A stretch of 64,000 bases of DNA from the NCBI RefSeq assembly GCF_018780385.1, contig NZ_JADMJO010000025.1, positions 9,994 to 73,993 on the forward strand, written 5' to 3'. Every line of letters begins with the position of its first letter. Positions within the stretch are counted from its first letter, which is position 1. This document shows positions 1,640 through 45,120 of this stretch, one piece after another. Both the position numbers and the translations under genes were made by a program. The notes below the pieces were generated by a model that had not been told where the DNA came from, made no database searches, and was given only the letters and a program-made list of their open reading frames with translations. Origin of the DNA: Hydrogenophaga sp. Its GTDB lineage: Bacteria; Pseudomonadota; Gammaproteobacteria; Burkholderiales; Burkholderiaceae_C.

Positions 1640-1689
1640 CACTTATCCCGTGCGTTTTTCCCTCCACTCCACCCTTGAAAGGACTTTTT

Positions 1690-1881
1690 ATGCCCGACTT
1701 GACCTCCGAGACCCACAGACCCTCCTATACCCACGAACCGGCCCGGACTGTGTTGCGCCCCTTGCTGGCAGCGGCGGCACTCGGCTTGGTGGTTCTGTAT
1801 GGCGTGGGTTTCGCTGAGAGCCCGCTGGCCCACAACGCCGCGCACGATGTCCGACACATCACTGTTAAGCCCTGCCACTGA
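1690..1881 (+). CDS. cbtB: cobalt transporter small subunit CbtB
   Basis: one TM helix followed by HNAAHDVRH...PCH; ATG at 1690. Confidence 0.8.
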   Translation: MPDLTSETHRPSYTHEPARTVLRPLLAAAALGLVVLYGVGFAESPLAHNAAHDVRHITVKPCH

Positions 1882-1905
1882 ATTGTTGGCACCAAGGAGA
1901 GCAAC

Positions 1906-2730
1906 ATGCTTTTTCAAAAGCTGATCTGGGCAGCGCTCACTACCGCTGTGGTGGTGGGCAGTCTCCAAACCGGTGTGCAGCGCTGGCAGGCCGCTCCGCT
2001 GATCTTGGCGGCCGAGGTGTACGAGGACCAAAAGGCAGAGGTATCCCCACCAGGCGCAGCGCTTACCGCTCACGCGCATGGCGAGGGCCAAGCCGGCCCG
2101 GCGCACGACCATGGTGCTGCCGAGGAATGGGCGCCCGAGAACGGCGTCGAGCGCACTGGCTGGACGTGGGTCGCCAACATCCTGCATGCCTTTAGCATGG
2201 CATTGCTGGTGTTTGCAGCGATGGGCTTCTGGTTTTCTCGGCAGGACACGTCCTGCCTGACGGCGAGCGCTTCGTTGCGTGTCGCTGGTCTGGTGGCGGC
2301 GGCCGGCTGGGTGAGCTTTCACCTGTGGCCCACCCTGGGGCTGCACGCCGAGGTTCCCGGCATGCAGGCGGGCCCGCTGCAGGCCCGACAGATATGGTGG
2401 ACGCTGGCGGTGGGGTGCGCAGCGGGTGCCTGCGCCATCGCTGCATTTGTGCGCAGTCCCTGGCGCTGGCTGGCGGTGGCGGCTTTGCTCGTGCTGCCGT
2501 ACGTGGTGGGAGCGCCCAAGCCGCGAGGCGATGCACTCGCGGGCTTTGGCCCTGAAGCTCATGCCTCACTGGAGCAGTTGGGTCACCAGTTCATCCTGGC
2601 AACCACTTGGGTTGCGCTGTCGTTCTGGCTTTGCATGGGGCTGGTGGGAGGCCTGGCGTTCCAGCGCTGGGTGGCGCCCGGCGTTCGCGCCGCGTTGTCC
2701 GGCACGAACACGCCGCCCCGGGCGCCATGA
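1906..2730 (+). CDS. cbtA: cobalt transporter subunit CbtA
   Basis: PLILAAEVYE, His-rich loop, WAPENGVER, PTLGLHAEVPG, multiple TM helices; RBS aaggag. Confidence 0.85.
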   Translation: MLFQKLIWAALTTAVVVGSLQTGVQRWQAAPLILAAEVYEDQKAEVSPPGAALTAHAHGEGQAGPAHDHGAAEEWAPENGVERTGWTWVANILHAFSMALLVFAAMGFWFSRQDTSCLTASASLRVAGLVAAAGWVSFHLWPTLGLHAEVPGMQAGPLQARQIWWTLAVGCAAGACAIAAFVRSPWRWLAVAALLVLPYVVGAPKPRGDALAGFGPEAHASLEQLGHQFILATTWVALSFWLCMGLVGGLAFQRWVAPGVRAALSGTNTPPRAP

Positions 2731-2766
2731 ACCCGGTGGATTGACGCCGCGCCCCCAAGGTCCAAC

Positions 2767-5700
2767 ATGCATCTTTTGTCTACCCGACCCGGCGGCCACG
2801 TGGAAGACGCTGGCCTGGGCGTGGTGCGCGTCGCGCAAACGCCCGCCGACATCGTGGTTCTTACGGTGGCCGACACCACGTTGTCCCTGCTGGCAGAAGC
2901 GGTGGCGGCGCTGCCGCCAGATTTCCCGACCGTGCGCCTGGCCAATCTGATGTGGCTGCGGCAGCCCGCATCGACCGACATGTACGTTGACGACGTGCTA
3001 CGCCACGCCCGTGTCGTGGTGATCGACCACCTGGGCGCACCAGCGGACTGGGCTTATGTGGTGGAACAGGCGACGACGCTGGCTCGCCAGCACGACCAGT
3101 GGCTGGCCATGTTTTCGGGCGAGCAGTTGGAGGACCCACAGTTGCTGTTGCGCAGCACAGCAGCAGTGGAGGACAGCCGTTTTCTGTGGCAATGCCTGCG
3201 CGAGGGCGGTCGCGACAATGCCCGCGCCTTTTTTGACTTGATCGCGTACCGCGCGCTGGGGCGGGGGTCTTTGCCCGCGCTGCCACAGCCCTTGCCGCCC
3301 GTCGCACGCTACCTTCCTGCCCTGCCACCGGCCTGGCTGGATGGTGCACCGGTGGCCCTCGTGCTGTTTTACCGGGCCCATGCGCAGACGGGCAATACAG
3401 CGGTGTTCGACGCCCTGATGATGGCCTTGCACCGCGAGGGCGTCAACCCGCTGGCCCTGGCGCTGGACTCGCTGAAGTCGCCCTCGTCACTGGCGGCCGT
3501 GCATGCCCTGGCTGCCGAGCACTCGGTCGATGTCGTGCTCAATGCCACCAGCTTTGCAGTCGGTGCCATGGGCGACGATGGCGCCGACGGCGTGGACGCT
3601 CCACTGCTCGCCGGCGACGCGCCGGTGCTGCAACTCATCACCGCCGGCTGCGCGCGTGAGCAGTGGCAGGCCGATCCGCACGGCCTGCAGCCGCGCGACC
3701 TGGCCATGCAGGTGGTGCTGCCCGAAGTGGACGGCCGCATCGGCACCCGGGCCATCAGCTTCAAGGGCGTGGCCTGGCGCTGCGAGCGCTCGCAGGTGGA
3801 TGTAGTGCGCTACCAGCCAGAGGCCGACCGGATTGCATTCGTCGCCGAGCTTGCCCGGCGCTGGTGCGTCCTGCGCCGCAAGCCGGCGGCCGATCAGCGC
3901 CTGGCCCTGGTGCTGGCCAATTACCCCAGCGACGACGCCCGCCTGGCGAATGCCGTGGGCTTGGACACCCCGGCCTCGGTGGTGGGCATCCTAGGCGCGC
4001 TGCAGGCCCAAGGCTATGCAACGGGCGAGCTGCCCGCACACGGCGACGCCCTAATGGCGCGACTGATCGAGGGCGTAACCCACAAAGTGGACGCCAACGA
4101 CCATCGCCCCGTCGGGCAAAGCCTCTCCATGGCCGACTACCTGGCTGACTTTGAAGCCCTGCCCCCTGACCAGCAGGCCGAGGTCAACGCGCTGTGGGGA
4201 CCACCCGAGAAAGATCCGTTGTTGCGCAGCGGCCGCTTCATGGTGCCGGGCCTGCGCGTCGGCCAGGTCTTCGTCGGCCTGCAGCCGGCCCGCGGGCGCG
4301 ACCTGGACCTGGTCGCAAGCTACCACGATGCCGACCTTGTGCCCCCGCACAACTACCTTGCGTTTTACTTCTGGTTGCGCCGCGTCTGGGGCGCCGATGC
4401 GCTGGTACATGTGGGTACGCACGGCAACCTGGAGTGGCTGCCGGGCAAGAGCGTGGCGCTGGGTGCGGGCTGCTGGCCAGATGCGATCTTCGGGCCGCTG
4501 CCCCACCTGTACCCTTTTATCGTCAACGATCCGGGCGAAGGCAGCCAGGCCAAGCGGCGTACGCAGGCGGTGATCATCGACCACCTGATGCCGCCGCTGA
4601 CGCGGGCCGAAACCTACGGGGCGCTGCAGGTATTGGAGCGGCAGATGGACGAGTACTACGAGGCTCTGTCGCTCGACCCACGCCGCGCCACTCGGTTGCG
4701 CCAGACCATTCTGGAGGAAGTGCTGCGCCACGGCTTGCACGCCGACCTGGGTTTTGAGGCGCCCGCCGACGAAGCCGCACGCCAGCGCCTGCTGGAACGG
4801 CTGGACGCCTACCTGTGCGAGATCAAGGAATCACAGATCCGGGACGGTCTGCACGTGTTCGGTCTGTCGCCTCAAGGGCGTTTGCGGACCGATACCCTAC
4901 TTGCTCTGGTGCGGTTTCCACGCGGCAAAGGCCAGAGACAAGCCAGCTTGTTGCAAGCCTTGTCAGCCGACCTGCGGCTGGACGGATTCGACCCGCTCGA
5001 CCCCAACTGGAACCATAACTGGACCCAGTCGCGCCCACCGGTACTGGCAGCCTTAGGAAACGAAGCCTGGCGCCATGCGGGCCACACCCGTGATCGGCTG
5101 GAGCGATTGGCCAGCCGTCTGGTGGACGGCAGCGAACCTCTGGACCGCGCCAAGTGGCCGCTCACCGCGCAGGTGATGGACGAGCTGCAGGAGCGGCTCG
5201 GCCCCCGGCTGGACGCCTGCGGCGAGCAGGAAATGACCCAGCTGCTGCGCGGCTTGCGAGGCCGTTTTATCCCCCCCGGACCGAGCGGCGCGCCATCGCG
5301 CGGACGGCCGGACGTATTACCCACCGGCCGCAATTTCTACGCAATCGATACGCGCGCGGTGCCTACACCCACCGCCTACGCCATGGGCGTAATGGCGGCC
5401 GAGCGGCTGATCGAGCGCCATCTGCAGGACCACGGCGGGTTTCCAGCGTCGATCGGGCTTTCGGTCTGGGGCACCAGCACCATGCGCACTGGCGGCGAAG
5501 ACATCGCCCAGGCCATGGCACTGCTGGGCGTGCGGCCCAAGTGGGCGCCGGGCAGCCAGCGCGTAGTGGACATCGAGGTGCTCCCGATGGCGATACGTGA
5601 CCGTCCTCGGGTGGACGTGACCTTGCGCATCTCGGGTTTCTTTCGCGACGCTTTTCCGAATCTGATCGACCTGTTCGACACGGCGGTTAAGGCGGTGGCG

Positions 5701-6555
5701 GCCATCTCGCTAGAAGACGAGCCCGACGACGTGAATCCAGTGCGTGCTCGCGTGCAGCGCGAGGCGGCCGATACGTGTTCCCAAGGGATGTCCGAAGAGG
5801 TTTCGCAGAGGCAGGCCAGCTGGCGTGTTTTCGGCCCGCGGCCGGGCGGCTACGGCGCCGGCGTGCAAGACGTCATCGACAGTGGGCGCTGGGAAGCGCC
5901 GGGTGACATCGCCCAGGCCTACCTGCGTGCGGGCGCCTTTGCTTACGGCCAGGACGAACACGGTGCGGCGGCGCGCGCCAGCTTCGAGCGGCGTGTGGGC
6001 GGCTTCGATGTGGTGCTGCAGAACCAGGACAACCAGGAACAGGACATCCTGGATTCAAGTGACTTTTACCAGTTCCAGGGCGGCATGGCTGCCGCGGTAC
6101 AACACCTGAGCGGCAAGGCGGCGTCCATGTACCACGGCGACTTCAGCACACCTGGATCGCCGCGCATCCGCAGCCTGAGTGACGAACTGGCGCGGGTGGT
6201 GCGGGCCCGCGTGGTCAACCCCAAGTGGATCGCGGGTGTGCAACGCCACGGCTACAAGGGTGCCTCCGAGATGGCTGCCACCGTCGACTCCCTTTTCGGC
6301 TTTGACGCAACCACTGGCCTGGTGGGGGACCACCAGTACGCGCTTGTGGCCGATGCCTACGTGTACGACCCTGTCAACCGCGCCTTTCTTGAACAACACA
6401 ACCCCCAGGCCTTACGCAGCATGGGCGAACGCCTGCTTGAATCCATGCAGCGTGGTATGTGGCAGGAACCCGGCGAGCATCGGGAGCGCATCGAACAGAC
6501 CTTGTTGGCACTGGAACACCGGCTCGAAACTCAGGGCGAAGGACCCACGAAATGA
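2767..6555 (+). CDS. cobN: cobaltochelatase large subunit CobN
   Basis: 1262 aa; MHLLSTRPGG start, HVGTHGNLEWLPGK, PTGRNFY, RISGFFRDAFP, NPKWI motifs. Confidence 0.95.
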   Translation: MHLLSTRPGGHVEDAGLGVVRVAQTPADIVVLTVADTTLSLLAEAVAALPPDFPTVRLANLMWLRQPASTDMYVDDVLRHARVVVIDHLGAPADWAYVVEQATTLARQHDQWLAMFSGEQLEDPQLLLRSTAAVEDSRFLWQCLREGGRDNARAFFDLIAYRALGRGSLPALPQPLPPVARYLPALPPAWLDGAPVALVLFYRAHAQTGNTAVFDALMMALHREGVNPLALALDSLKSPSSLAAVHALAAEHSVDVVLNATSFAVGAMGDDGADGVDAPLLAGDAPVLQLITAGCAREQWQADPHGLQPRDLAMQVVLPEVDGRIGTRAISFKGVAWRCERSQVDVVRYQPEADRIAFVAELARRWCVLRRKPAADQRLALVLANYPSDDARLANAVGLDTPASVVGILGALQAQGYATGELPAHGDALMARLIEGVTHKVDANDHRPVGQSLSMADYLADFEALPPDQQAEVNALWGPPEKDPLLRSGRFMVPGLRVGQVFVGLQPARGRDLDLVASYHDADLVPPHNYLAFYFWLRRVWGADALVHVGTHGNLEWLPGKSVALGAGCWPDAIFGPLPHLYPFIVNDPGEGSQAKRRTQAVIIDHLMPPLTRAETYGALQVLERQMDEYYEALSLDPRRATRLRQTILEEVLRHGLHADLGFEAPADEAARQRLLERLDAYLCEIKESQIRDGLHVFGLSPQGRLRTDTLLALVRFPRGKGQRQASLLQALSADLRLDGFDPLDPNWNHNWTQSRPPVLAALGNEAWRHAGHTRDRLERLASRLVDGSEPLDRAKWPLTAQVMDELQERLGPRLDACGEQEMTQLLRGLRGRFIPPGPSGAPSRGRPDVLPTGRNFYAIDTRAVPTPTAYAMGVMAAERLIERHLQDHGGFPASIGLSVWGTSTMRTGGEDIAQAMALLGVRPKWAPGSQRVVDIEVLPMAIRDRPRVDVTLRISGFFRDAFPNLIDLFDTAVKAVAAISLEDEPDDVNPVRARVQREAADTCSQGMSEEVSQRQASWRVFGPRPGGYGAGVQDVIDSGRWEAPGDIAQAYLRAGAFAYGQDEHGAAARASFERRVGGFDVVLQNQDNQEQDILDSSDFYQFQGGMAAAVQHLSGKAASMYHGDFSTPGSPRIRSLSDELARVVRARVVNPKWIAGVQRHGYKGASEMAATVDSLFGFDATTGLVGDHQYALVADAYVYDPVNRAFLEQHNPQALRSMGERLLESMQRGMWQEPGEHRERIEQTLLALEHRLETQGEGPTK

Positions 6556-7634
6556 AGACATTCAACGCACACAACACGTCCCACGAACTGCAGGACGCCA
6601 ACGATGTGATGTACCCATTTTCTGCGCTGATCGGCCACGCCGGGCTGCGGCAGGCGCTCCTGCTGGCGGCGGTAGACCCCGGCATCGGCGGCGTGCTGAT
6701 CAGCGGGCCACGCGGCACGGCCAAATCGACTGCGGCGCGCGCACTGGCGGCTTTGTTGCCGGGTGCTCCCTTCGTGAGCCTGCCGCTCGCGGCCACCGTT
6801 GAGCAACTGGTGGGCACACTCAACCTCGAACACGTACTGCGCGACGGCCTCGTGCGCCTGGCGCCTGGCATGCTCGCTCGTGCGCACGGCGGCGTCCTTT
6901 ATGTGGACGAGGTCAACCTTTTACCCGACGCGCTGGTGGACGCCCTGCTTGACGCGGCGGCAAGCGGCATCAACACGATCGAGCGTGACGGCGTTTCGCG
7001 CCAGCATGCGGCCCGCTTCGTGCTGATCGGCACCATGAACCCCGAAGAGGGCGAGTTGCGCCCCCAGTTGCTGGACCGCTTTGGCCTGTCGGTGGTGCTG
7101 GAAAATCCCACCGATCATGCGCTGCGCCAGTCGATCGTCCGTGCCCGCTTGGACTTTGACCTCGATCCGCAGGCATTGATGCAGCGCACAGCCAGCGCGC
7201 AGGCCGAGCTGGTGTCCCGGATGGCAGCCGCGCGAGAAGCGCTACCTGCGGTGGACTGGAGCGATGCCGTGCTGACGCACGCCACCGCGCTGGCCGTGCA
7301 GGCCGCCGTGGACGGTGTGCGCGGTGACCTAGTGCTGCTGAAGGCGGCCCGGGCCCATGCCGTGCTGGCGGGTCGGTTCGAGGTGACGCCGGCGGATGTC
7401 GACACCGTGGCCGAATGGGCCTTGTGCCACCGCCGGATGGCGCCGGCTCCCCAGGCCCAGCAGGCTGCGGCGCCCCCCCGCACGACCAGCGGCCCCTCAG
7501 GGGCGGGCAGTGCCGGATCGCAGGCAGATCATTCATTGACGAGTGCCGCCGGGGACTGGGGCGCACTGCCGGCGCAGGCTGAAGGCTGGGAAGCGGTTCG
7601 AACCACTGGAGGGCCTGTCGCAAAAAAAGCCTGA
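6552..7634 (+). CDS. chlD: ChlI/ChlD-type AAA+ chelatase subunit (frame-0 product)
   Basis: ATGA overlap with cobN stop; GPRGTAKST, YVDEVNLL, GTMNPEEGELRPQLLDRF; Pro/Ala-rich linker at the end. Confidence 0.88.
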   Translation: MKTFNAHNTSHELQDANDVMYPFSALIGHAGLRQALLLAAVDPGIGGVLISGPRGTAKSTAARALAALLPGAPFVSLPLAATVEQLVGTLNLEHVLRDGLVRLAPGMLARAHGGVLYVDEVNLLPDALVDALLDAAASGINTIERDGVSRQHAARFVLIGTMNPEEGELRPQLLDRFGLSVVLENPTDHALRQSIVRARLDFDLDPQALMQRTASAQAELVSRMAAAREALPAVDWSDAVLTHATALAVQAAVDGVRGDLVLLKAARAHAVLAGRFEVTPADVDTVAEWALCHRRMAPAPQAQQAAAPPRTTSGPSGAGSAGSQADHSLTSAAGDWGALPAQAEGWEAVRTTGGPVAKKA

Positions 7635-7682
7635 GCCACCCCGCAGGCCGCGCCTCCACGGTGCCCGGACTGCGGCGGTGGT
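7608..7682 (+). other. putative -1 programmed ribosomal frameshift signal
   Basis: GGAGG at 7608-7612, slippery A_AAA_AAA at 7622-7628, 12-bp stem 7635-7646/7670-7682; VWA ORF is open in the -1 frame from the slippery site. Confidence 0.7.
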
Positions 7683-8323
7683 TCTCCATTGACCCATACG
7701 CAAGGCCGCAACTGGCGCAGAACGCGATGCAGGCATCGGCCCACACGCCAGGGCGAATCGATTGGTGTCGCACCCTGCTGCGCAAAGGGCCCGCCGCCTT
7801 GCAGCGGTCCCATCTGCAGCGCGAACACCGCCCCGCTGACATGTCGACGCTTCACCTGATCGCGCTGGACAATTCCGGCTCCATGCGGCAAGGCGGTCGT
7901 CTGGCGCGAGCCAAGGGTTTCGCGGCGCGCCTTATCGAGGACGCGGCCCGTACCGGCAACCAGGTCGGACTGCTGCTGTTCGGGGGACAGGGGGTGCAAT
8001 GCGTACTGTCGCCCACCCAGGCGCGGCGCTCGGCGTTGGGGCGGCTTCGGCCGCTGGGCGGGGGTGGCGGTACGCCCCTGGCGGCAGCGCTGGGTCAGGC
8101 GCAGACCGAACTTCTGGCGCATCGGCGGCGCCACGGCAATGGGCGCCGCCTGCTGTGGCTACTCACCGACGGGCGCAGCCTGGAGCAACCAGCAGCACCT
8201 ACGGCGGCTGACCACATCGTCATCGTCGATTTCGACAACTCTCCTCGCCCACTCGGACGCTGCAGGGCCTGGGCACAGGCCTGGGGCGCCGAGTTGCGCC
8301 AACCCACCACTGACACACAATGA
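7661..8323 (+). CDS. VWA domain of ChlD-type subunit (probably translated as a -1 frameshift extension of 6552-7628)
   Basis: MIDAS DNSGSM, GGGTPL, LTDGR; no convincing independent start or RBS. Confidence 0.8.
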   Translation: MPGLRRWFSIDPYARPQLAQNAMQASAHTPGRIDWCRTLLRKGPAALQRSHLQREHRPADMSTLHLIALDNSGSMRQGGRLARAKGFAARLIEDAARTGNQVGLLLFGGQGVQCVLSPTQARRSALGRLRPLGGGGGTPLAAALGQAQTELLAHRRRHGNGRRLLWLLTDGRSLEQPAAPTAADHIVIVDFDNSPRPLGRCRAWAQAWGAELRQPTTDTQ

Positions 8324-8748
8324 CTCCAAAAACCGACCTCAGCACGACTGAGCTCATCATTTGCACCACCTGCCGCCCTGCGGAGAACACGCGAGATCAG
8401 CGCGCTGCAGGTGACATTCTGTTGGAAGCCGTGCAAACCGCACAGGCCTTCGGCGATCAGCCCGAGTGGGCCGCTATTCATGTGCGAGGGGTGGCGTGCA
8501 CGGCCGGCTGCTCGCGCGCCTGCACGGTGGCTTTTCAGGCTCCTGGCAAGCACAGCTTCCAATTTGGCGACCTGACCCCCTCAGAGGACGCTGCCCGGCA
8601 ACTGCTGGATTGCGCCGTGATGCATTTTCGGGCGCCCGATGGCAACTTGCCCCGCGATGCCCGCCCTGCCCTTTTGCGCAGCGGCATCCTGTGCCGCCTG
8701 CCACCGACCCGTTCATCCGCTGAAAGCAATCATGACGCGGGCCGTTGA
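8320..8748 (+). CDS. DUF1636-family Cys-rich metal-binding protein
   Basis: ICTTCR, VACTAGCSRACTVAFQAPGKHSFQFGDL; ATGA overlap with previous stop. Confidence 0.75.
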   Translation: MTPKTDLSTTELIICTTCRPAENTRDQRAAGDILLEAVQTAQAFGDQPEWAAIHVRGVACTAGCSRACTVAFQAPGKHSFQFGDLTPSEDAARQLLDCAVMHFRAPDGNLPRDARPALLRSGILCRLPPTRSSAESNHDAGR

Positions 8749-9487
8749 AAGTCCGGCCGTGCAAGCCGCCGCGGCAGACACCGACCTGACCGGGGCGACG
8801 GCCCCGGAGCACGTTTTTTCGCCGGCTCAGCAGGAGGCCGTCTACCGCGCCATTTTCGAGCGGCGCGACATGCGCCACTTTGCCGGCGGTGCGGTTGCGC
8901 CGGCTGTGATGCGCCGCCTGCTCATGGCCGCGCACCATGCGCCCAGCGTGGGCTTCATGCAGCCGTGGCGCTTCCTGCGGGTAGCCACGCGCGCGTTGCG
9001 GGCCGAGTTGCAGGCGCTGGTGGAGCAGGAGCGGCAGCAAACCGCCACGGCGCTGGGAGAGCGCATGGATGCGTTTTTGCGCCTCAAGGTCGAAGGCCTG
9101 ATGGACGCGGCCGAGGTCTGGGTGGTGGCGCTGTCCGAGGGCCGTGAACAGCATGTGTTCGGCCGGCGAACCTTGCCGCACATGGACCTCGCCTCGACCG
9201 CCTGCGCGATACAGAACCTGTGGCTGGCCGCGCGCGCCGAGGGCCTGGGCATGGGCTGGGTTTCGATGTTCGACCCGGTGGCGGTGGCTTCATTGCTGGG
9301 TATGCCCGAAGGCGCAGAGCCCGTCGCGCTGCTGTGCATTGGCCCGGTCCGCCATTTTTATGATGACCCCATGCTCCAGCAACAGCGCTGGGCACAGCGA
9401 ACGGCACTGGACGATGTGCTGTTTGAAGACGCTTGGGGCCAGCCCCTGAGCGCGGGCGGGACGGCGGGCTCGGGACGTGGCGATTGA
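8732..9487 (+). CDS. bluB: 5,6-dimethylbenzimidazole synthase BluB
   Basis: RRDMRHF, AHHAPSVGFMQPWRF, CAIQNLWLAARAEGLGMGWVS. Confidence 0.9.
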   Translation: MTRAVESPAVQAAAADTDLTGATAPEHVFSPAQQEAVYRAIFERRDMRHFAGGAVAPAVMRRLLMAAHHAPSVGFMQPWRFLRVATRALRAELQALVEQERQQTATALGERMDAFLRLKVEGLMDAAEVWVVALSEGREQHVFGRRTLPHMDLASTACAIQNLWLAARAEGLGMGWVSMFDPVAVASLLGMPEGAEPVALLCIGPVRHFYDDPMLQQQRWAQRTALDDVLFEDAWGQPLSAGGTAGSGRGD

Positions 9488-9944
9488 TCCAGATCGCCTC
9501 AAGGAAATGATACGGAAAATGAACGTGCAGATCTCTCATGCCGACGCCTGACCTCGTCATGAGCCTCGTCGGTTGGTTCACCCCCCGACGCAGCCGTACT
9601 GACCGGCGCGGTACTGGTCGGGCTGGGGCTGGATGACTGCAGCCCCCTTAATAGCCGTTGTTGTTGCCGTAACGCTGACGGGTGAGTCGATGACGGCTTC
9701 GTGCCAGCCAGCGTCTACCCAGCTCGTGACCACGACCGACGGCTGTCGCTGCACAGCCGAAGTACAGGTCCGTGCGGCGAAGGACTGCAACAGTCAGGAG
9801 TACTGCCGTGACTGGCTTGAAGCGCTGACCACGACAACCACGGGTGGTCCGATTCAGGCGACAAGCCTGGAGCTCTGAACCACAATCTCAACCGTTGACG
9901 GCCACGCCATACATCGGCACCCCTGCGGTGCCAACTTCAACCAA

Positions 9945-10002
9945 CCCGCCGGGTGCACTCATTGCCCGGTCGGGCTTTCGAGGCTCCCGGCTTTTCTTTT
10001 TT
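9945..10002 (+). terminator. intrinsic terminator with alternative upstream stem (attenuator-like)
   Basis: UUCG-capped stem 9971-9989 plus TTTTCTTTTTT; 9971-9974 can instead pair with 9945-9948. Confidence 0.5.
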
Positions 10003-10011
10003 GGAAAAACC

Positions 10012-10185
10012 ATGAACGTCAAAGACCAAGCCCGCAACTGGATCAAGACTGTGGTGGGCAGCCATATCGGCCGCAACATCCGGACCTCCAAGTTCGTCAC
10101 TTACACGGGCGAGACCAGCCACAACCAACTCGGTGGCGTCAGCTACCTGATGCCAAACGCGCCACCCGAGGAATCGCGCCGCTGA
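10012..10185 (+). CDS. small hypothetical protein (57 aa)
   Basis: ATG after GGAAAA; MNVKDQARNWIKTVVGSHIG reads like a natural protein. Confidence 0.5.
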   Translation: MNVKDQARNWIKTVVGSHIGRNIRTSKFVTYTGETSHNQLGGVSYLMPNAPPEESRR

Positions 10186-10453
10186 GTATTTGATCCTCGC
10201 AGGTGAATGCGACGCCTGACAAAGCGCAGCCCTGATACCCTGGCGCTTCACCAACGCAGATCACCTCTGGATCGCAATCCAAATGGGCTCCCAAGCGAGC
10301 CAGTTTCGCCTGGGGGTTGTTGCTGTTTGCGTCCAGTGGGTGAGGCGTGGCGTAGGGGTTGAACAATCCCTCGCGGATAGCTGGAAGCAATGACGCAAGC
10401 TCCTGAGCCAACGCCATTGCAGATGAACTCACAGAACACGCTTCAGTCATCAT
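10139..10453 (-). pseudogene. truncated uracil-DNA-glycosylase-like gene
   Basis: LFNPY and VICVGEAPGYQGCALSGVAFT motif; reading ends shortly after, C-terminal half absent. Confidence 0.55.
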
Positions 10454-10628
10454 GGTTCCCGAACTGGTCGATGCTGCCGTGGTTGTGGGTAACGGCCCGC
10501 CCCCCGCCGCTGGAGCCTTCTTCGTCTTCATCACCGCCACCAATCCCACTTGCAATCCCTTTGAGTGCAAGGAAGATCACGAATCCCACCACACACAAAA
10601 TCAGCAAAGATTCCATTTCGTTCCCCTA

Positions 10629-10976
10629 TCAAGAGTTCAAGCGCCACTCAGGCAGCGCCATGTTCTTTTTCACGGCCAACGTCATCATGGCCACCGTCTT
10701 CACATACGCCAGCCGCTGGCCGAAGGTCTTGGGCTCGGGCATGTCCCGCAGTCCCAGCTCGTCGACCATGTCCTCCAGAAGCGGGTCCAGGTGGGCGGCG
10801 TGCTTCCACTCCGACACCACCACCTCGGGGCGGCTGATGTGCAGCTTGATCTTCAAGAGATCGCGGCCGTAAAGGCTCCCCAGCAGCCAGTGAGGCTCTT
10901 TGGCGGCGGCCTCGACGGGAGCGTAGTGCTCGCGGAAGTCTGCAACGGTCATATCGATTTCGGCCAGGTAAGACAT
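10629..10976 (-). CDS. hypothetical protein
   Basis: 115-aa ORF with GC3-rich codons and RBS-like AGAGGA; no motif recognised. Confidence 0.6.
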   Translation of the reverse strand: MSYLAEIDMTVADFREHYAPVEAAAKEPHWLLGSLYGRDLLKIKLHISRPEVVVSEWKHAAHLDPLLEDMVDELGLRDMPEPKTFGQRLAYVKTVAMMTLAVKKNMALPEWRLNS

Positions 10977-11103
10977 TTTTGTCCTCTCTTTCGGTTTGCT
11001 TGAAACTAGGTTCTCACGTATCAAGCTCGTGTCAAGGGTGCTTCAAACGAAAAAAAGGGCCGACATTTGTCAGCCCCCTTTCATGCTCAGATCGCGCTTG
11101 CGT

Positions 11104-11448
11104 CTAGTGCGCCGCCAGTTTGTAGGTCTCACCGAACATCCGTCCGAAACTGTTGAGTTCAGCTTCGTCGGTTTCGTTGTTCACCACGCTCGCTGCCGGT
11201 ACAGACGCCGCGCTCGCCTCGGCGGAATCTACCGCTGACCGATGTGGTGTGACCGGCGCTTGCGGTGAGGAGATTCCCCCGTTTCGCAACATATCCTTCC
11301 TGAACAGCCACCCAAGATAAGCCAGCTGGTACACGGCGTTCGAGAGAGTCGATGGGTCCAGCCCGTCCAGATGCTCCATCAGGCCATCGGCGTCCTTTGG
11401 AAAGCGAAGGCGCACCCGCACGCCAGTTCCTTCTTTGGATGTAGCCAT
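11104..11448 (-). CDS. putative ParR-like partition adaptor
   Basis: small ORF immediately downstream of ParM-like gene; N-terminal VRVRLRF beta-strand and acidic tail fit a ribbon-helix-helix adaptor (inference). Confidence 0.5.
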   Translation of the reverse strand: MATSKEGTGVRVRLRFPKDADGLMEHLDGLDPSTLSNAVYQLAYLGWLFRKDMLRNGGISSPQAPVTPHRSAVDSAEASAASVPAASVVNNETDEAELNSFGRMFGETYKLAAH

Positions 11449-11465
11449 GCTCGTTGCTCTCCGGG

Positions 11466-12554
11466 TCAACGGTTCGCACTGCCCATGCGCTGGGTGTACT
11501 CGGCGACGATCTGGAATCCCCGCACGTTCGAGAAGGCCGCGCCGGCATCGATGCGAAGGCGAGGGCGCAGCTCCGGGTGGTGTTCGCGCAGAAAGTCGTA
11601 GAACACAGCCCCACCACCACCACCACAGACCAGGATGCTGTGAAAGTCCTCCAGAGCACCGATCGTGTCCAGCATCGCATCGTAGCCCCCGCGCAGCACG
11701 TCGCTGATGGCTCCAGAGAAGTCGGACATCGCATATTCCACACCCGAGATCCGGATCGTCTCCTTGCGCTCGCGAATCGCGGTGTCGATTTCTTGGATGA
11801 TGCTGTACTGGCCGCGCAGGCTTGGGTTGATCATCTTGGCCACGGCCGAAGCGCAGGCCAGCATTGATTCCGGATGAGCACCGGACCGCTCGTAGTTGGG
11901 AGCCTTGTCACGGGCAACAAGGAAGTCGATGGTGCCACCGCCCACGTCGATGACGAGGTTCCACCCGCTCAGATTGAAGTCGGGATGGGTCAGGCCGTAG
12001 TTGTACAGAGCGCCCATAGGTTGAACCATCACCGAGGCATCCACCACCGTGACATGGCGAGCGCCCAGTTGGGGATCAGGGCTCACGACTTCATGCCGAC
12101 CCACCACGAGGCTGCGGAGTCGATCACGTTATTCGAGGTACGTGTTCAGAGGCAATCCCACCGTCAGGTGCTCGATGGCCATTTCCTGCGGGTTGCCTGC
12201 ATCCTCCAGCATGTAGTGCATCGCGCCGCGCATCAGCGCCAGGTACGCGGGAGAGGTGCAGTAATCCTTCATCACGTGCCGTGGCTGGATGCCCTTCAAG
12301 TGCATGTCTACCCCTCGGCCTGCAAAGTGGGGGACGCCGTTGACTTCGCTGATACAGCCGTCAGCACCGTGCGAACCAGGCGCGTGCATGAACGTGGCAT
12401 TCGGGCGCAGCGTGGCAGTGATCGAGGGGAACAAGTCGGCGTGAACCATGTTGATCCCGTTGACCTGCTTGCGCCCGCAGGTGTACTTGGTGTTGGCGTA
12501 GCCCACGTCGATTGCTCGAGCTGGGACGCTGGTGATGTTCGTATCGCGTTTCAT
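11466..12554 (-). pseudogene. parM: ParM/StbA actin-like ATPase (PRTRC protein D-like) with single in-frame TAA
   Basis: RAIDVGYANTK, VGLP, QPMGAL, IDVGGGTID, CGGG, NVRGF; YLE*RDRLR stop at 12129-12131 joins two same-frame ORFs; RBS aaggag. Confidence 0.8.
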
Positions 12555-12648
12555 GGGACTCTCCTTGAAGAAATTGCATGCACGGGGTGTGCTGGTAGGG
12601 GAGTTTCTGGTCGCATGCTCAAGTGCGCAAGCGATGGCGACCAGTCCT

Positions 12649-12841
12649 TGGCCCGGAGTGACCCGCACCGGGCCACGCCGGGCCAGGTCAACAGTCAAAA
12701 AGCGACACAACGGATTGGGAGCTGGCCCGGAGTGGCCCGCACCGGGCCACTCCGGGCCATGCCAAGCACATGCGGACAGGAATAGTGCCAAGAGCTTCTT
12801 CGGCTGGCCCGGAGTGGCCCGCGCCGGGTCACTCCGGGCCA
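12649..12841. repeat. three 37-bp palindromic repeats, parC-like centromere candidate
   Basis: TGGCCCGGAGTGGCCC-N5-GGGCCACTCCGGGCCA at 12649, 12723, 12805; half site at 12911-12921. Confidence 0.8.
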
Positions 12842-13058
12842 GGGAGTGTTGTTCTTCAACAGGCGGCTTCGCCTTCAGTGAACGCCATCGCAACCCTCGA
12901 ACGTTCCGAACGGAGTGGCCCTTTCACTCAGGTCATGAAGGGGAGGTGCGACAGAAAAGGAACGCTTAAAGACAGAGTGATAACAAGAGGGTTGTTTCGC
13001 AAGCCATTTTTTCCAACATATAAAGAGAGGAAAGGGGGGAGGAAAACTTTCTTTAGTC

Positions 13059-13067
13059 TGTGGATAA
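13059..13067 (-). promoter_or_regulatory. perfect DnaA box
   Basis: TGTGGATAA is the reverse complement of TTATCCACA; single copy, so function uncertain. Confidence 0.35.
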
Positions 13068-13120
13068 CCCGACGACAGAACGCATATCGCGAGGGGTTGC
13101 CCACAACTGGTCCGCATCGA

Positions 13121-13149
13121 ATGACAAGATGTGGCACAGCCCCTAATAT
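13121..13149 (+). promoter_or_regulatory. sigma70-like promoter
   Basis: ATGACA (13121-13126), 17-nt spacer, TAATAT (13144-13149). Confidence 0.5.
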
Positions 13150-13155
13150 CCGTTT

Positions 13156-13990
13156 CGCTGTACCTCGGTACGTCGACATCCCGGTTCACACCAGTGATGT
13201 CCTAGCCCACCGGGCAAACCGCCAACCGACGCTCCACTGTGAGTGTCCTAAGGCAAAAAGTCGGCCTCCCACGTTGGAAGTCGCAAACCAAGACGGTGCT
13301 CTGTATGGGGCATCGCAAAACAGGTCGCATAAAGACCAGCTGCTGAATCCGCGATGCGGTTCGGAAGTGGTGGCCCCCGGATGGGGATTGCCCACAGCAA
13401 GCTAACTAGGCCTTCCTATGGAAGCCGCCAGCCAACGCTCCGAGCTACGGAGCATGTGTGGACGCGCAAGCGTAAAGAACAACTCACGTTTTGACTTCGC
13501 TCTGACGACTACTTTCGGGTGGCTCGTCACAAGTACCTCCCGCCTGGCAATTGAGCCGGGAGCCCTCTGGGCCTAAAAAGGGGCAGGTTGGACAAGTAGC
13601 AAAGGACAACGCCGCCAAATCAGTCTGGCGGTGAAGTGAGTTCACCTGGGTAGTGAATAACTACTCTGGTCTAGCCCACCACACAAGGCTCTGTCTGAAG
13701 AAGACAGTACCCCCCCAACGCCATCACTGCGTTGGGGTGCTCATCCAGTAAGGATGAGGGTCACATGGGGATTCCACCTATGCCGACAGGATGGCTTGCT
13801 AACGAAAAACGGAAACCACTGAAGACTGTTGTGCCTTGCCCAGGGGCCTTGTACCGGGCGACCAGTAGCGAAACACGAAAAAAGGAGCCAGAGCGATCTG
13901 GCGGTTTGAGGTTGCCCGGAGGGTTGACACATGCAGGTTGCGAGAGCCGCCTTCAGGTGTGAACCCTCTGCGGTAGAGGCCACGTCAGTA
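13156..13990 (+). ncRNA. candidate large structured RNA / very long leader of the recombinase gene
   Basis: more than 12 local hairpins with G-U pairs and GCAA, GCGA, UUCG tetraloops; 10-nt complement 13183-13192/13956-13965; no credible ORF. Confidence 0.5.
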
Positions 13991-14003
13991 AAGGAGCGTC
14001 AAG

Positions 14004-15494
14004 ATGGATGAAGGTAAACATTTGGGTATGGGAGATGCATCTACAGGTGGGACAGGAGGCGGGCGTTCGTATAACGGTGCTCCATTCCGGCCGAAGAAGA
14101 AAGCAACGATTCCCCGCAAATCGCGTGCACAGACCTTGAAGCGGGGAGGTCCTGGCAGCGCCAAACCACGTTCTGACCACGCCATCGCCTTGTATGCGAA
14201 CGACCCGCACAAACAGATGGCAAATTTTCTGGACGGGCTGGATCCGCAGGCCTTCATAGGACGTGTACGTTCGGTGTCGCACCTCACGGAAACGCGCTTC
14301 GGTCAAACCCTCAAACGCATGATCGGTGAACTAAGCGAACTGAACATGCCGATCCAGCGCATCGACCAGGTCAGCCGCCGCCACGTGGCTGCCCTGGTTG
14401 TGCGTTGGGTGAACGAGGAAAAACAGGTGGCTGCTACCGTCAACAACAAGGTGAGTTTCATTCGCAAGTTTTGCGAACTCATCGGCAAGGTGGGCGCGAT
14501 CCCCAAGGGAGAGGAGTGGTACCAACTTCTGGAATCGAAGGGAGTACCGCGCAGCGCCTTGGTGCGCCAGCAGGTGGCCTATGGCAGCAAGACCTGGAGC
14601 GCTGCAGGGATTGAACCCATCGGCATTGCTGCGCTGTTGGCGGAGGATCATTACCACGAGTCATTGCTCATCGAGCTGATGTATTACTTCGGGTTGCGGG
14701 TGTCGGAAGCGCTCAGTCTCAACCCCACCCGGGCAGACGTTGTGGGAGGTCTGCTGTTGACGTCAGGCACCAAGGGCGGAAAGGATCGGCTGGTTCCATA
14801 CATGGAAGGTGCTGAAATGAAGGCCAAGCAGCGTGAGGTGCTGAACCGCGCGATCGACTGGATGAACAAGAACAACCGCCGCGGTGACATGGGCTACCCG
14901 GGACTGTCAATGGAGAAGTCGCGTCAGAAGTACTACAACACACTGTACGCGGTGGGCGTGACGAAAGCTGATCTGGGAATTGTCAGCCATGGTCTGCGGC
15001 ATGAGTACGCTGCAAACTTGTTCGAGCAACTCACTGGACATCGCCCACCGGTGGAGGGGCAGGAGCCGTCGGATTGGTTCAAGAAGAACCGGGAACTGGT
15101 TGATCACGCCTACCTCATGGTGTCGGAGGCCTTGGGGCACTGGCGAAAGAGCATCTCAGCTGCGTACTTGGGCTCCATCGCAGGGATGAGCAAAACGCAG
15201 AAGGTTCGCATCGAAAAGCTGATCGAGATGTTCCAGAACACACCCGGCGTCGCCGAAGGCTTGCTTGCGGTGGGGATTGAGCGTGCGTGGCTGACCGGTC
15301 GCGGTGGTCAAGGCGTCCAGTTGGCGCCTAACGAGCGCGTGCAACTCACCGTGTCGTTGAAGGAGGGCGTGTTGTGGTCTGTTCTCAACGACGCGCACGC
15401 CGTACTCGAAAAGTTGCTTCCTGGGCGTGTGATGGTCGCGCCATTGCTCGGTGGCGTGCAACCCGATGACGGCGTGGAGGTTTTCCTGGACTGA
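14004..15494 (+). CDS. tyrosine recombinase (integrase-domain protein) with C-terminal extension
   Basis: GLRVSEA (R), GTKGG (K), HGLRH, LGHWR, SAAYLG (Y); RBS aaggag. Confidence 0.9.
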   Translation: MDEGKHLGMGDASTGGTGGGRSYNGAPFRPKKKATIPRKSRAQTLKRGGPGSAKPRSDHAIALYANDPHKQMANFLDGLDPQAFIGRVRSVSHLTETRFGQTLKRMIGELSELNMPIQRIDQVSRRHVAALVVRWVNEEKQVAATVNNKVSFIRKFCELIGKVGAIPKGEEWYQLLESKGVPRSALVRQQVAYGSKTWSAAGIEPIGIAALLAEDHYHESLLIELMYYFGLRVSEALSLNPTRADVVGGLLLTSGTKGGKDRLVPYMEGAEMKAKQREVLNRAIDWMNKNNRRGDMGYPGLSMEKSRQKYYNTLYAVGVTKADLGIVSHGLRHEYAANLFEQLTGHRPPVEGQEPSDWFKKNRELVDHAYLMVSEALGHWRKSISAAYLGSIAGMSKTQKVRIEKLIEMFQNTPGVAEGLLAVGIERAWLTGRGGQGVQLAPNERVQLTVSLKEGVLWSVLNDAHAVLEKLLPGRVMVAPLLGGVQPDDGVEVFLD

Positions 15495-15521
15495 GTTGGA
15501 ACACCGTGGCTGGGCGTGGAG

Positions 15522-15760
15522 CTATGCCGGGTTGGATTGGGTGCTCGTTTCTGGTGTGCCTTTGAAAGCCAGCACGAGCATCAACATCCCGGCCACTGGC
15601 GGAATGCAAAGCAGCAATGCCCACCAGCCGGAGCCCAAACCATCGCGAGATTGCTTGATCACCTGCAATGCGATGGCCAGCAGGACCCAGGAGGAACGCG
15701 ATACCACCGAAAAGGCTCTTTGCCTGCACTCGGGTGCCCGTTGAGGCAATGAATGTTCTC
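15522..15760 (-). pseudogene. DUF805-like membrane protein C-terminal fragment
   Basis: RDGLGSGWWALLLCIPPVAGMLMLVLAFKG resembles the DUF805 signature; N-terminus missing. Confidence 0.4.
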
Positions 15761-15813
15761 TCGGCCCCTGATGGCCACCCAAATTCCCTCAACTGAACTG
15801 ATCGGGGATAGGG

Positions 15814-16380
15814 TCACCCACCTTCAAAGGCAACCCCACCACGCAACCCGAGCGGGGCAAAAACCGAGAGGTTGGACTGACCTACTCCAGCGGTCTGCAC
15901 GAGGTCAAGGTCACGCGATTTGACAACCGGGTGAAGGGTTTCATCACATTGCAACCGGCTGTGGGTAACGTACCGCGCGCTCGCATCGAAGGATGGTCGT
16001 TGGCCTACACCGGTGCGGCGGGCGCGTGGAGCTGGTATACCAATCTGGAACTGCTGGACGCACGTAACGAGCTCAACCTGCGCAAGCTGCAGCGCCGCGC
16101 CGACGAAGTGCTCACCGCCAGCGTCGACCACAAGGTCGGGGCCTGGAAATGGGGCGCCTCGCTGCAACTGGTCTCCGAGCGTTTCGACAACGCGGCCAAC
16201 ACGCAGCGCCTGCCGGGCTACGGCACGCTCGATCTGCACGCGCGCTACACCGTGAACAAGGACTGGTCGGTGGCCCTGCGTCTGAACAACGTGGGCGATA
16301 AGTTCTACGAAACTGCCTACAGCTACAACCAACCCGGGCGTGCGGCCTACGTAACGCTTAACTGGGCACCGCAGCAGTGA
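15814..16380 (+). pseudogene. btuB: C-terminal fragment of BtuB-like TonB-dependent receptor
   Basis: GNPTTQPERGKN...LNNVGDKFYETAYSYNQPGRAAYVTLNW; upstream in-frame stop at 15799, about two thirds of the gene missing; coupled to cobB. Confidence 0.75.
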
Positions 16381-17720
16381 TGCAACACTGCCCCGCAGTC
16401 CTAGTGGCAGCCCCGGCCTCCGGCCAGGGCAAGACCACTGTAGCCTGCGCGCTGGCGCGTCTGCATGCGCGGGCGGGTCGCCGGGTGCGTGCCTTCAAGT
16501 GTGGGCCCGACTTCCTGGACCCGCATTGGCTCGCGCTTGCCACGGGCCACCCCGTGCACAACCTCGACCTGTGGATGACGGGCGAGGACGATGCACGCGC
16601 ACGGCTGCACGCAGCGGCCAGCGAGGCCGACCTGATCATTGTCGAGGGTGTGATGGGGCTGTTCGACGGTGAGCCAAGCGCGGCCGACCTGGCCCAGCGT
16701 TTCAGCCTGCCGGTGCTGGCGGTGATCGACGCCTCGGCCATGGCAGGCACCTTCGGCGCACTCGCTTTCGGCCTGCAGCACTTTCGACCTGGACTGCCTT
16801 GGGCCGGAGTGTTGGCCAACCGCGTGGCCAGCGAACGCCATGCGCAGATGTTGCAGGACGCGTTGTCGGGCGAGGGCTCGCGCACGGACTCGAATTTGCT
16901 GGGCGCGGTCATGCGCAATGAAGCGTTTTCGCTGCCGGAGCGTCACCTGGGACTAACGGTAGCGTCTGAAATTCCCGATGCGCTGGCGCGCCTGGACGCG
17001 GCCGCCGACGCACTGGCCGCCACACCGCTTGGGCGCATGGACGCTGCTGCGCTGGCACGCTGGTCGGTGAGTTTCGAACCGACGGTGGAGATTCCTGCCC
17101 AGGCGCCCTTGCTCGCCGGCCGGACCATCGCCATTGCGCGCGATGCATCGTTCTGTTTTGTCTACCCTGCCAACCTCGACGTGCTGCGCGGGCTGGGCGC
17201 GGAGTTGGCTTTCTTCTCGCCGCTGGCCGATGAGGCGCTGCCGTCTTGTGACGCGGTATGGCTGCCCGGAGGCTACCCCGAGTTGCATGCGACCACCCTG
17301 GCAGGCAGCACGGTATGTCGTGCGAGCCTGATCGAGCATGTGAACGCGGGCGGTCCGCTGTGGGCGGAATGCGGCGGCATGATGCTGCTGTTTGACGAGT
17401 TGCTGACCCTCGACGGAGAGACGCATGCGATGTGGGGTTTGCTGCCGGGTTCCGTGACCATGCAGAAGCGCCTGACCGCGCTTGGGCCTCAGCGGCTCAC
17501 GCTGCCTGCGGGCGCGTTGCGTGGCCACACGTTTCACTACTCGCGTTGTGTATCCACGCTCGAACCGGTGTGCCGCACCGAGCCGGCGCGGGCGGGCGCC
17601 AGCGGTGCGGGTGAGGCCGTGTTTCGTTCGGGCTCGGTGCATGCAAGCTATTTCCACGCCTGGTTCGCTTCCAATCCCGAAGCCACCGCTTCGCTGTTCC
17701 TGTCAGGAGACACTGATTGA
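16377..17720 (+). CDS. cobB: cobyrinate a,c-diamide synthase
   Basis: SGQGKTT, FKCGPDFLDP, EGVMGLFDG, LPGGYPELH, AECGG, SYFH. Confidence 0.92.
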   Translation: MMQHCPAVLVAAPASGQGKTTVACALARLHARAGRRVRAFKCGPDFLDPHWLALATGHPVHNLDLWMTGEDDARARLHAAASEADLIIVEGVMGLFDGEPSAADLAQRFSLPVLAVIDASAMAGTFGALAFGLQHFRPGLPWAGVLANRVASERHAQMLQDALSGEGSRTDSNLLGAVMRNEAFSLPERHLGLTVASEIPDALARLDAAADALAATPLGRMDAAALARWSVSFEPTVEIPAQAPLLAGRTIAIARDASFCFVYPANLDVLRGLGAELAFFSPLADEALPSCDAVWLPGGYPELHATTLAGSTVCRASLIEHVNAGGPLWAECGGMMLLFDELLTLDGETHAMWGLLPGSVTMQKRLTALGPQRLTLPAGALRGHTFHYSRCVSTLEPVCRTEPARAGASGAGEAVFRSGSVHASYFHAWFASNPEATASLFLSGDTD

Positions 17721-17786
17721 TCACCATGCTCCCACATGCGCTCAACAAACACTGGGTGGAGGCGTCGGGGGATGTCGAACGCCTGA

Positions 17787-18239
17787 ATGTCCGGCCTGCA
17801 CCTGATCGCACTCGATTCCTCGGGCTCCATGCGCCAGGAGGGTCGACCCGCACGGGTCAAGAACTATTCAGCATGCCTCATCGAGCAGGCCACGCGCGCG
17901 GCACGCAGCGCACGGGCACGGCCCGTGAGTGGCGGTGGCACGCCGCTGGCTGTCTGCCTTAAAGAGGCCGAGCGGATTTTGTGCGTGACCACGCGCCAGC
18001 GCGTTCGCGACCAGGATACCTGCCTGTGGCTCTTCACTGCTGGATGCACCTTCGAACGTCCCGACCTACGCCAGGCGGCAGGCCACATCGTCGTGGTCGA
18101 TTTTGATAATCCCTTGCGGTCCATCGGCCGGTGCGCGGCCTGGGCCGAGTGCTGGCACGGAGAACACCGCTTTCCAGACCGAACCCTTACTCGCCACACG
18201 CCATGTCAGAACCCGTTTCAACCGCGATCACTGAAGTGA
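17787..18239 (+). pseudogene. degenerate second copy of chelatase VWA domain
   Basis: LHLIALDSSGSM, GGGTPL, HIVVVDFDN parallel 7842-8323 with an internal deletion and TDG changed to TAG(C). Confidence 0.65.
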
Positions 18240-18610
18240 TCATCTGCATCACCTGCCGTCCACCTGGCGCATCGCGCGATCTGCCAGCGGCGGGTGCCGA
18301 CTTGTTCGAAGCTGTGCAGATGCAGCAACTTTTGCACGAAGACCGGTGGCCATCGGTGCGTGTGCGCGGCATCGCCTGCCTGAGCAGCTGCTCGCGCGCC
18401 TGCTCTGTGGCTTTCCAAGCTCCGGGTAAACACACCTACCTGTTTGGCGATCTGCAGCCCGACGAAAAGACCGCTCAGCACGTGCTGGCCTGTGCCGCCC
18501 TGCACGCCACGGCAACCGACGGCAACATGCTGCGCAACGATCGACCTGAACGGCTGCGCAGCGGTATCTTGGCGCGGCTACCGCCTAGCCTGGAGACCAC
18601 GACCCTGTGA
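18203..18610 (+). CDS. DUF1636-family protein, paralogue of 8320-8748
   Basis: ICITCR, ACLSSCSRACSVAFQAPGKHTYLFGDL. Confidence 0.75.
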   Translation: MSEPVSTAITEVIICITCRPPGASRDLPAAGADLFEAVQMQQLLHEDRWPSVRVRGIACLSSCSRACSVAFQAPGKHTYLFGDLQPDEKTAQHVLACAALHATATDGNMLRNDRPERLRSGILARLPPSLETTTL

Positions 18611-36717: not shown

Positions 36718-36730
36718 ATCAGAGCTGGTG

Positions 36731-45118: not shown

Positions 45119-45120
45119 AC

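Follow-up and report, generated by a model that had tools for sequence, protein, structure and literature searches.

The window analysed here, a stretch of 64,000 nucleotides from a Hydrogenophaga sp. contig, contains a module of two divergent arms. On the forward strand lies a tyrosine recombinase gene (14004–15494; 496 aa) of a clade related to Integrase_1/PF12834, the product of which ends in a domain resembling the minimal nucleotidyltransferases (MNTs), hereafter the tail. The gene is preceded by a ribosome-binding site (AAAGGAG, 13990–13996), by a large structured non-coding RNA of ~800 nt and ~25 hairpins on the same strand (~13156–13970, with both ends placed by the promoter and by conservation), and by a sigma-70-like promoter (ATGACA-17-TAATAT, 13121–13149). 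The reverse strand encodes a ParM/PRTRC-D actin-like partition ATPase (11466–12554) and, directly behind it, a small protein of 121 aa (11104–11469), for which no family match was found and which is ParR-like by position only. The parM gene is broken by an in-frame TAA (12129–12131) at a codon that specifies Tyr in the relative L001.

The gap between parM and the RNA is itself organised. Three 37-bp palindromic repeats (12649–12841, starting at 12649, 12723, and 12805) are unique in the genome, relatives carry clade-specific repeat arrays at the same spot, and the repeats are probably a parC-like centromere. A box of 15–20 bp is present in inverted copies before each promoter, one just 5′ of the RNA promoter (13104–13118, forward strand) and a degenerate one at the parM end (12632–12645, reverse strand). 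The two copies change together between clades, and the box is probably a site for a regulator or for the recombinase that is common to both promoters; an invertible switch between the boxes was rejected, as no inverted orientation occurs among the relatives. A 9-mer that we take to be a DnaA box (13059–13067) has a degenerate inverted partner at 13097–13105, and in a scan of 67 loci, 11 tail-bearing loci had a perfect match to it 5′ of the RNA, compared with no tail-less locus. Repeats upstream of parM in two relatives (L127:8354–8579 and L141:7868–8030; GCCC-N5-GGGC) presumably resemble the box of the AcaCD/FlhDC family.

The product of the gene, 496 aa in length, carries the intact catalytic residues of a tyrosine recombinase. 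It is comprised of a basic, disordered N-terminal arm (residues ~1–45), a core-binding domain (~54–195), and a catalytic domain (~196–392). Pfam assigned Phage_int_SAM_2 (89–162) and Phage_integrase (215–342), PF12834 scored 28.5 bits (cut-off, 22), and Integrase_1 (PF12835; 218–337), which is carried by many close homologues, gave a weak match of 17.6 bits, below its cut-off of 23. R232, K257, R332, H379, and Y388 are invariant in all 32 aligned homologues, as is H329, which bears out the full R-K-H-R-H-Y set reported in the sequence-only reading. That reading had also counted about 100 extra residues after the catalytic Tyr, and the protein indeed continues for 108 residues past Y388. A homologue search recovered 52 proteins, ~40 of which covered most of the query length; the nearest named ones belong to Hydrogenophaga and other Burkholderiales, and their database names are integrase or XerD. 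Viral contigs yielded a single match, distant and tail-less. In the AlphaFold model (pLDDT 80), the N-terminal arm is disordered and the C-terminal domain folds separately; Foldseek matched the core to IntI4, Tn1549 Int, XerA, and lambda Int, and every structure match was an integrase or resolvase.

Several variants of this architecture were observed among the relatives. A tail-less branch of 580–750 aa (L045, L058, L073, L086, L090, and others) has a large insertion within the catalytic domain and was omitted from the recombinase tree. Three proteins (L113, L115, and L118) bear a different C-terminal extension of ~100 aa, to which the MNT-like profile gives no match. At three loci, the catalytic region is duplicated in part near an intact recombinase gene (L125:11702–12349, L021:5760–6404, and L129:2829–3548).

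The tail (residues ~397–496; 15192–15491) is a catalytically dead MNT fold by structure and profile matches. Folded alone, it reached a pLDDT of 93.8 and a pTM of 0.84. In a VIA-align comparison with 48,161 chains, the top match was the MNT 1WOT (Z 9.7, rmsd 3.0, 88/104 aligned), ranks 2–6 were also MNTs (Z 7.5–5.5), and RimP followed (Z 5.5). The first four Foldseek rows were likewise MNTs, led by MNT antitoxins, with none reaching E ≤ 0.001, and a sequence profile of the tails recovered 1WOT (E 0.0087). Thus, the degenerate MNT-like domain proposed from the sequence was confirmed, and the region folds as an MNT rather than in an unrelated or unstructured manner. Pfam gave no match for the window's tail and only scattered weak matches across 28 tails aligned from recombinase loci. 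The absence of the catalytic aspartates also held: the D-x-D positions of the 1WOT alignment correspond to R445/Q447 and the third to 477/478, and Asp occurs at none of the three in any of the 28 tails. The G-S motif of MNTs has become G-R/A/K/P/G/Q, with S in 2/28, and the W/Y-x-x-G...G backbone is kept. The tails are neutral to slightly acidic (10 K+R against 12 D+E in the window copy).

Mean identity among the 32 homologues is as high in the tail (58.6%) as in the core-binding domain (57.8%). In a quick IQ-TREE analysis of 109 cores, 40 of the 41 tail-labelled rows fell into one branch (SH-aLRT 94), which also includes the more diverged tail of L171; the assignment of L149 as tail-bearing is doubtful, because its match is borderline (11.9 bits) and it lies outside the tail clade. 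The tail-bearing recombinases thus form one clade and trace back to one evolutionary event; the tail is one old fusion, catalytically dead and kept by selection. A search of 1.84 billion representatives for free-standing relatives of the tail returned nine matches, none of them a free-standing relative (six were members or fragments of the recombinase family and three were repeat artefacts), and the ESM Atlas gave no usable match. A Pfam scan of neighbouring proteins revealed no HEPN gene beside the recombinase. Comparison of the tail with the AbiEii nucleotidyltransferase of the window revealed no similarity, and a homodimer prediction for the tail (score 0.27; mark, 0.42) speaks neither way.

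The promoter at 13121–13149 is the sole sigma-70-like promoter found in positions 12500–15900, lies at the 5′ end of the RNA, and recurs as a pattern in four further clade-A loci. The predicted fold contains nested long-range helices (13396–13403/13793–13800, 13481–13487/13636–13642, and 13339–13344/13864–13869), its last hairpin ends ~25 nt before the ribosome-binding site, and no intrinsic terminator was found on the forward strand between the RNA and the recombinase gene. At the DNA level, positions 13101–13968 are 84–89% identical in relatives, the recombinase genes of which are 66–72% identical; in global alignments, the RNA (62–93%) exceeds the gene (56–74%) in 7/7 pairs. The best-conserved core of the RNA sits 200–600 nt from the recombinase start codon. 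Only 13 of 104 internal alignment gaps in clade A, and 1 of 40 in clade B, are multiples of three, and these frame-breaking gaps rule out a protein hidden in the leader.

That the putative large RNA of the sequence-only reading is a conserved RNA structure on the forward strand is supported by covarying helices and by strand-specific tetraloops. RNAalifold predicted 215 pairs from 14 sequences, 49 of them with compensatory change, and clade A scored z −19.6 on the forward strand against −9.2 on the reverse relative to column shuffles (six each). In the 3′ core, compared between three clades, both partners vary in 15 of the 30 pairs and 95% of cells pair, a level reached by 0/500 shuffles and compared with 1–4 pairs in slid controls, where the structure was drawn from the same alignment and the related sequences are not independent. 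GNRA/UNCG tetraloops (14 loci, bonuses off) make up 34/96 loops on the forward strand, 4/88 on the reverse, and 3/140 in random genome pieces; this enrichment on one strand only points to RNA and disfavours a folded single-stranded DNA. Folding z-scores of the window region were −7.3 (forward) and −4.3 (reverse); such single-sequence scores on 600-nt pieces are noisy, and weak in many loci, and the alignment-based tests were preferred. Contigs from RNA-seq (four runs of one sample) contain exact pieces across parts of the RNA and the gene, with DNA carry-over possible. Neither the window RNA nor those of seven relatives matched Rfam, the only rows for the window being two sub-threshold miRNA matches, both on the palindromic repeats, and blastn of the leader against plasmid records gave no match.

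A covariance model of the RNA 3′ core was run over 80 recombinase loci, and every match at E < 0.01 lies upstream of a tail-bearing recombinase, including loci beyond the training set (L144, 52.8 bits; L170, 50.3; L145, 20.4; L027, 18.4); none of the 52 tail-less loci matched at this threshold (best, L041, E 0.07). Across 131 genomes of the genus, the model found 23 places in 17 genomes, 21 of them directly 5′ of the recombinase and one at a contig break; in G410, the RNA and parM are retained and the recombinase is lost. No match was found upstream of the recombinases of deep tail-bearing branches (G412, G472, G474, G483, G490, and G018). The tail-less relatives possess conserved leaders of their own (750–1000 nt), which are non-coding, fold better than shuffles, and contain GNRA/UNCG loops at 38/178 on the forward strand against 7/186 on the reverse (30 loci). 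An RNA can therefore be present without the tail, and possession of a large RNA characterises the broader parM-linked family: homologues lacking the tail keep the same kind of leader, although not detectably of the same family. Thus, the suggested link between tail and RNA stands insofar as the model matches only tail-bearing loci, but it is weakened by the single clade, the tail-less leaders, the deep branches with no match to this RNA, and the lack of net basic charge. The distribution of one clade with one RNA class, as read from these sequences, would allow for possible binding of the RNA by the tail.

Further RNA classes were observed upstream of recombinases. Clade E (L048, L049, L053, L060, L038, and L044) has a separate class of ~800 nt opening with a perfect hairpin of ~18 bp, others occur in L052/L085/L154 and in L155/L159/L162–L164, and clades G and H have in common a hairpin capped by GAAA, after which comes a TTCATTTTTA(A/C)G motif. 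The window's genome itself holds three copies of the module, the additional two from different sub-clades (G000:C147:~79300–83500, corresponding to L124:7287–11468, and G000:C112:54300–56700, corresponding to L006), so that three RNA variants are present in one cell.

The layout, in which parR-parM diverges from the RNA and the recombinase across the repeats, the DnaA box, and twin promoters, is kept with and without the tail, and the spacing from parM to the recombinase is 1.1–1.9 kb in both kinds of loci. Three annotated plasmids show PRTRC-D and a divergent “integrase” separated by a gap of 1.2–1.6 kb. Exceptions are L143 and L198, with no parM nearby, and plasmid pB1A, in which the recombinase lies 9 kb from parM and has no leader. 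The module is an internal backbone unit of large plasmids and islands. The plasmids have their own Rep typing and often already encode a MOBH relaxase, and one named plasmid carries genes for an FlhC-family regulator, MobH, TraD, and VirB proteins. The chromosomal islands carry defence cargo (AbiEii, Wadjet, ABC-3C, and CBASS-like), and those of L002 and G420 (both beside tRNA-Arg) and of G405 have another integrase at the boundary. No MOBH relaxase (TraI_2), coupling protein, or TrbI match above cut-off was found in G405 and G420, which fits mobilizable islands. No att repeats were found for these two islands in 80–100 kb.

Short relatives of 288 aa occur in 262 plasmid records, of which 166 are typed non-mobilizable, and in three of six small plasmids inspected they lie 1–2 genes 5′ of a gene for a type IV coupling protein. 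These coupling-protein-linked proteins form a separate tree branch, and their loci show GNRA/UNCG at just 2 of 23 tetraloops and no sign of a structured RNA. Three small plasmids typed non-mobilizable (L172, L176, and L178) contain an operon of a short Integrase_1 protein, a small gene, and a coupling protein of type IV, which is a candidate for an unrecognised mobilization module.

The window copy is a decaying fragment of ~6 kb between cob genes, in which the recombinase and the RNA look intact. It joins the cob operon at ~9490–9790 on the left, where an internal deletion at ~10155 has shortened further backbone genes common to relatives (9793–11024). On the right, a DUF805 gene fragment (15522–15782, reverse strand), common to relatives up to ~15720, leads into a short sequence resembling an insertion-sequence end (15758–15813) before a 5′-truncated TonB receptor gene. 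In G419, this short sequence recurs at a contig break between the RNA and the recombinase, and it is also present in L001 at another site; it is probably the scar of an insertion-sequence end at the right junction. The sequence-only reading had seen neither an att site nor a cargo boundary: a search around the window recombinase revealed no pair of att-like repeats, in agreement with the former, whereas the cob junction and the sequence at 15758–15813 provide the boundaries.

The remainder of the window contains further traces of mobile DNA. A plasmid-like region (33595–46365) holds a Gp3-like recombination factor, a DUF3799 nuclease, Rep3, ParA, a lone TrbI, and a DUF3701-fused tyrosine recombinase, and the contig has the appearance of a megaplasmid in decay or of a plasmid that has integrated. 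The cob genes at 593–9487 and 15829–18610 make up a second set, 69–79% identical to the one at G000:C77, and are accompanied by the truncated TonB receptor gene and by duplicated VWA and DUF1636-like gene fragments. The reverse-strand fragment at 10139–10570, cut by the deletion at ~10155, has no Pfam match and contains a GEAPGYQG motif, which we take to resemble those of uracil-DNA glycosylases. A segment of ~125 bp (9628–9753) has copies of 71–92% identity on G000:C120 (two) and C3. An AbiEii-type toxin-antitoxin pair, TniQ with an AAA ATPase, DUF4062, and a TOTE primase-helicase are encoded at 49195–50964, 53179–55957, and 57836–62083.

These observations suggest a module for RNA-assisted copying or transfer of mobile DNA by the recombinase. 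From the layout and from precedent, we tentatively prefer a model in which the recombinase would be a relaxase-like DNA processor acting at an origin in the gap, with the RNA as its cofactor, in mobilization or transfer-linked replication. Also in keeping with this model are the coupling-protein genes close to some of the short relatives, the separate integrases at island boundaries, the missing transfer genes of G405 and G420, and the 21 of 23 RNA matches in the genus that directly precede the recombinase. The recombinase would thus serve as a DNA-processing enzyme of the mobile-element backbone, the insertion of the element being left to a separate integrase. The shared box may turn both promoters on together; the RNA would form the 5′ portion of the transcript that also encodes the recombinase, and may be processed; the recombinase would nick an oriT-like origin in the parM-RNA gap; the nick would start single-strand transfer or transfer-coupled replication via the conjugation machinery of a helper; and ParMRC would retain the excised copy. 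The RNA would be indispensable as a cofactor, in the manner of sgm-sRNA with MpsA of SGI1. The MNT-like tail, gained once in the clade, may be a non-catalytic docking domain, and the odds are about even between the RNA and a protein (such as the coupling protein, a helper relaxase, ParR, or DnaA) as its docking partner.

The closest precedent is SGI1, which depends on MpsA, a factor of the tyrosine-recombinase type, together with an RNA whose gene lies immediately upstream (PMC9299015, PMC6414798). The MpsA/MpsB-oriT-sgm-sRNA system and TcpM/MobK likewise possess the tyrosine-recombinase catalytic set, and SGI1 similarly encodes its RNA immediately 5′ of mpsA, in the same orientation, and has no full transfer system of its own; its order is oriT/sgm-sRNA/mpsA, with a primary RNA of 650–700 nt ending just 5′ of mpsA (PMC9299015). 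By contrast, the present system has a fused core-binding domain, a dead MNT domain, and a linked ParMRC, and belongs to Betaproteobacteria; its RNA is ~800 nt, ornate, and covarying, whereas the functional core of sgm-sRNA is ~180–280 nt. Similarly, the IncC/SXT/R391 srpRMC-oriT-mobI region has partition genes, oriT, and mobI in a similar order (PMC4542580, PMC13635750), with actin-type partition genes, a long intergenic region, a DNA-processing factor, MOBH relaxases on the plasmids, and FlhC-family activators (PMC4542580); here, the downstream gene encodes a 496-aa recombinase rather than the 23-kDa MobI adaptor, and the gap holds a large RNA. PF12835 serves as an “INT_DTR_like” DNA-transfer signature (PMC10484663), and MOB_M relaxases are reported to be common and often mis-annotated as integrases (bioRxiv 10.64898/2026.01.13.699239). 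On the other hand, the MpsA, TcpM, and MobK relaxases lack a core-binding domain (PMC8152469), which the window recombinase has. The loss of the recombinase in G410, the leaderless copy of pB1A, the sub-threshold Integrase_1 score, the lack of signs of a structured RNA in the short, coupling-protein-linked branch, and the MOBH relaxase already present in many carriers also argue against a relaxase-like role, and no nick site was found in the module.

As the main alternative, the module may be a par-ori-res cassette for maintenance, in which the recombinase would be a Cre/ResD-like multimer resolvase and the RNA, with the DnaA box, a Rep-independent origin primed or controlled by RNA. The DnaA boxes in 11 tail-bearing loci, the core-binding domain shared with resolvases, the extrachromosomal copy implied by an active partition system, and the existence of replication-tied plasmid RNAs such as ARRPOF, GEBRO, and PAGEV (PMC5737381) are in keeping with this explanation. 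However, the plasmids with the module have their own Rep typing, Rep3 and ParA are encoded on the window contig, the RNA-recombinase linkage is far tighter than an origin requires, and no fixed-sequence resolution site was seen, so that we regard a resolvase cassette as rather unlikely. It is less likely still that the RNA is a cis-acting 5′ leader controlling the recombinase by attenuation or at translation, possibly in an autoregulatory loop read by the tail. Its invariable position directly 5′ on the same strand, with a promoter at the 5′ end of the RNA, a start codon reached without an intervening terminator, and the last hairpin close to the ribosome-binding site, would suit a leader, but its ~800 nt, its nested long-range helices, and an identity above that of the gene go far beyond the needs of known leaders, and its most conserved core is remote from the start codon. 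That guide loops in the RNA set the DNA targets of the recombinase, as in the bridge RNAs of IS110, is highly improbable: a recombinase with a large cognate RNA, one class per protein clade, invites the comparison, but no short hypervariable loops in a constant scaffold were seen among 11 close relatives, no RNA segment matches the element flanks or the genome beyond chance, and the module is internal to larger elements and leaves no target-site scar. An ordinary island integrase to which a vestigial MNT antitoxin became fused fortuitously, as the database names and the integrase and resolvase matches of the core might imply, is equally improbable in view of the missing att pair, the separate integrases at island boundaries, a tail conserved like the core-binding domain, and the lack of a HEPN gene among the scanned neighbours.

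Other systems resemble single components of the module. MNT antitoxins and minimal nucleotidyltransferases (1WOT, HI0073, and MntA) share the fold and the W/Y-x-x-G...G backbone with the tail, but the tail has lost the catalytic aspartates and the G-S motif, has no HEPN partner in view, and is fused to a recombinase. GOLLD, ROOL, OLE, ARRPOF, GEBRO, and PAGEV are similar in size class, in their many hairpins, and in their association with mobile DNA, whereas the RNA described here has no Rfam match and is linked in a fixed manner to recombinase and partition genes. The IS110 bridge RNA and the IS1111 seekRNA likewise neighbour a recombinase gene; however, the present enzyme belongs to another class, no guide-like loops were found, and the module is not an insertion sequence. 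Rfam presumably holds most of the motifs of PMC5737381. In the literature covered, which is largely outside subscription journals, no account of an MNT-fused recombinase or of the ~800-nt RNA was found. The main text of bioRxiv 10.64898/2026.10.21.760802 mentions no integrases or ParM, and its database and supplements may hold the RNA as an unnamed cluster. The RNA thus appears to be undescribed.

Large, ornate RNAs are rare in bacteria, and for most of them no protein partner is known. The present RNA is linked in a fixed manner to one partner gene, is preceded by a promoter, occurs in several sequence classes, and has cultured carriers such as the named Hydrogenophaga and Polaromonas plasmid hosts, which makes its function directly testable, and the tail offers a clear case of an MNT fold retained after catalysis was lost. 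Tyrosine recombinases leave a 3′-phosphotyrosine and a free 5′-OH. It is tempting to speculate, although we consider it unlikely, that plasmids and islands of Burkholderiales harbour a widespread and so far undescribed ribonucleoprotein system in which the recombinase would work only with its own ~800-nt RNA as a scaffold, a primer, or even a guide, the tail would be the RNA dock, and every protein clade would have its own RNA class; if true, this would explain how a 3′-phosphotyrosine enzyme without a free 3′-OH starts strand transfer or replication. If the RNA does work with the recombinase, SGI1 would no longer stand alone as an instance of a recombinase-type transfer factor that depends on RNA, and the current non-mobilizable typing of many plasmids and defence islands would have to be revised.
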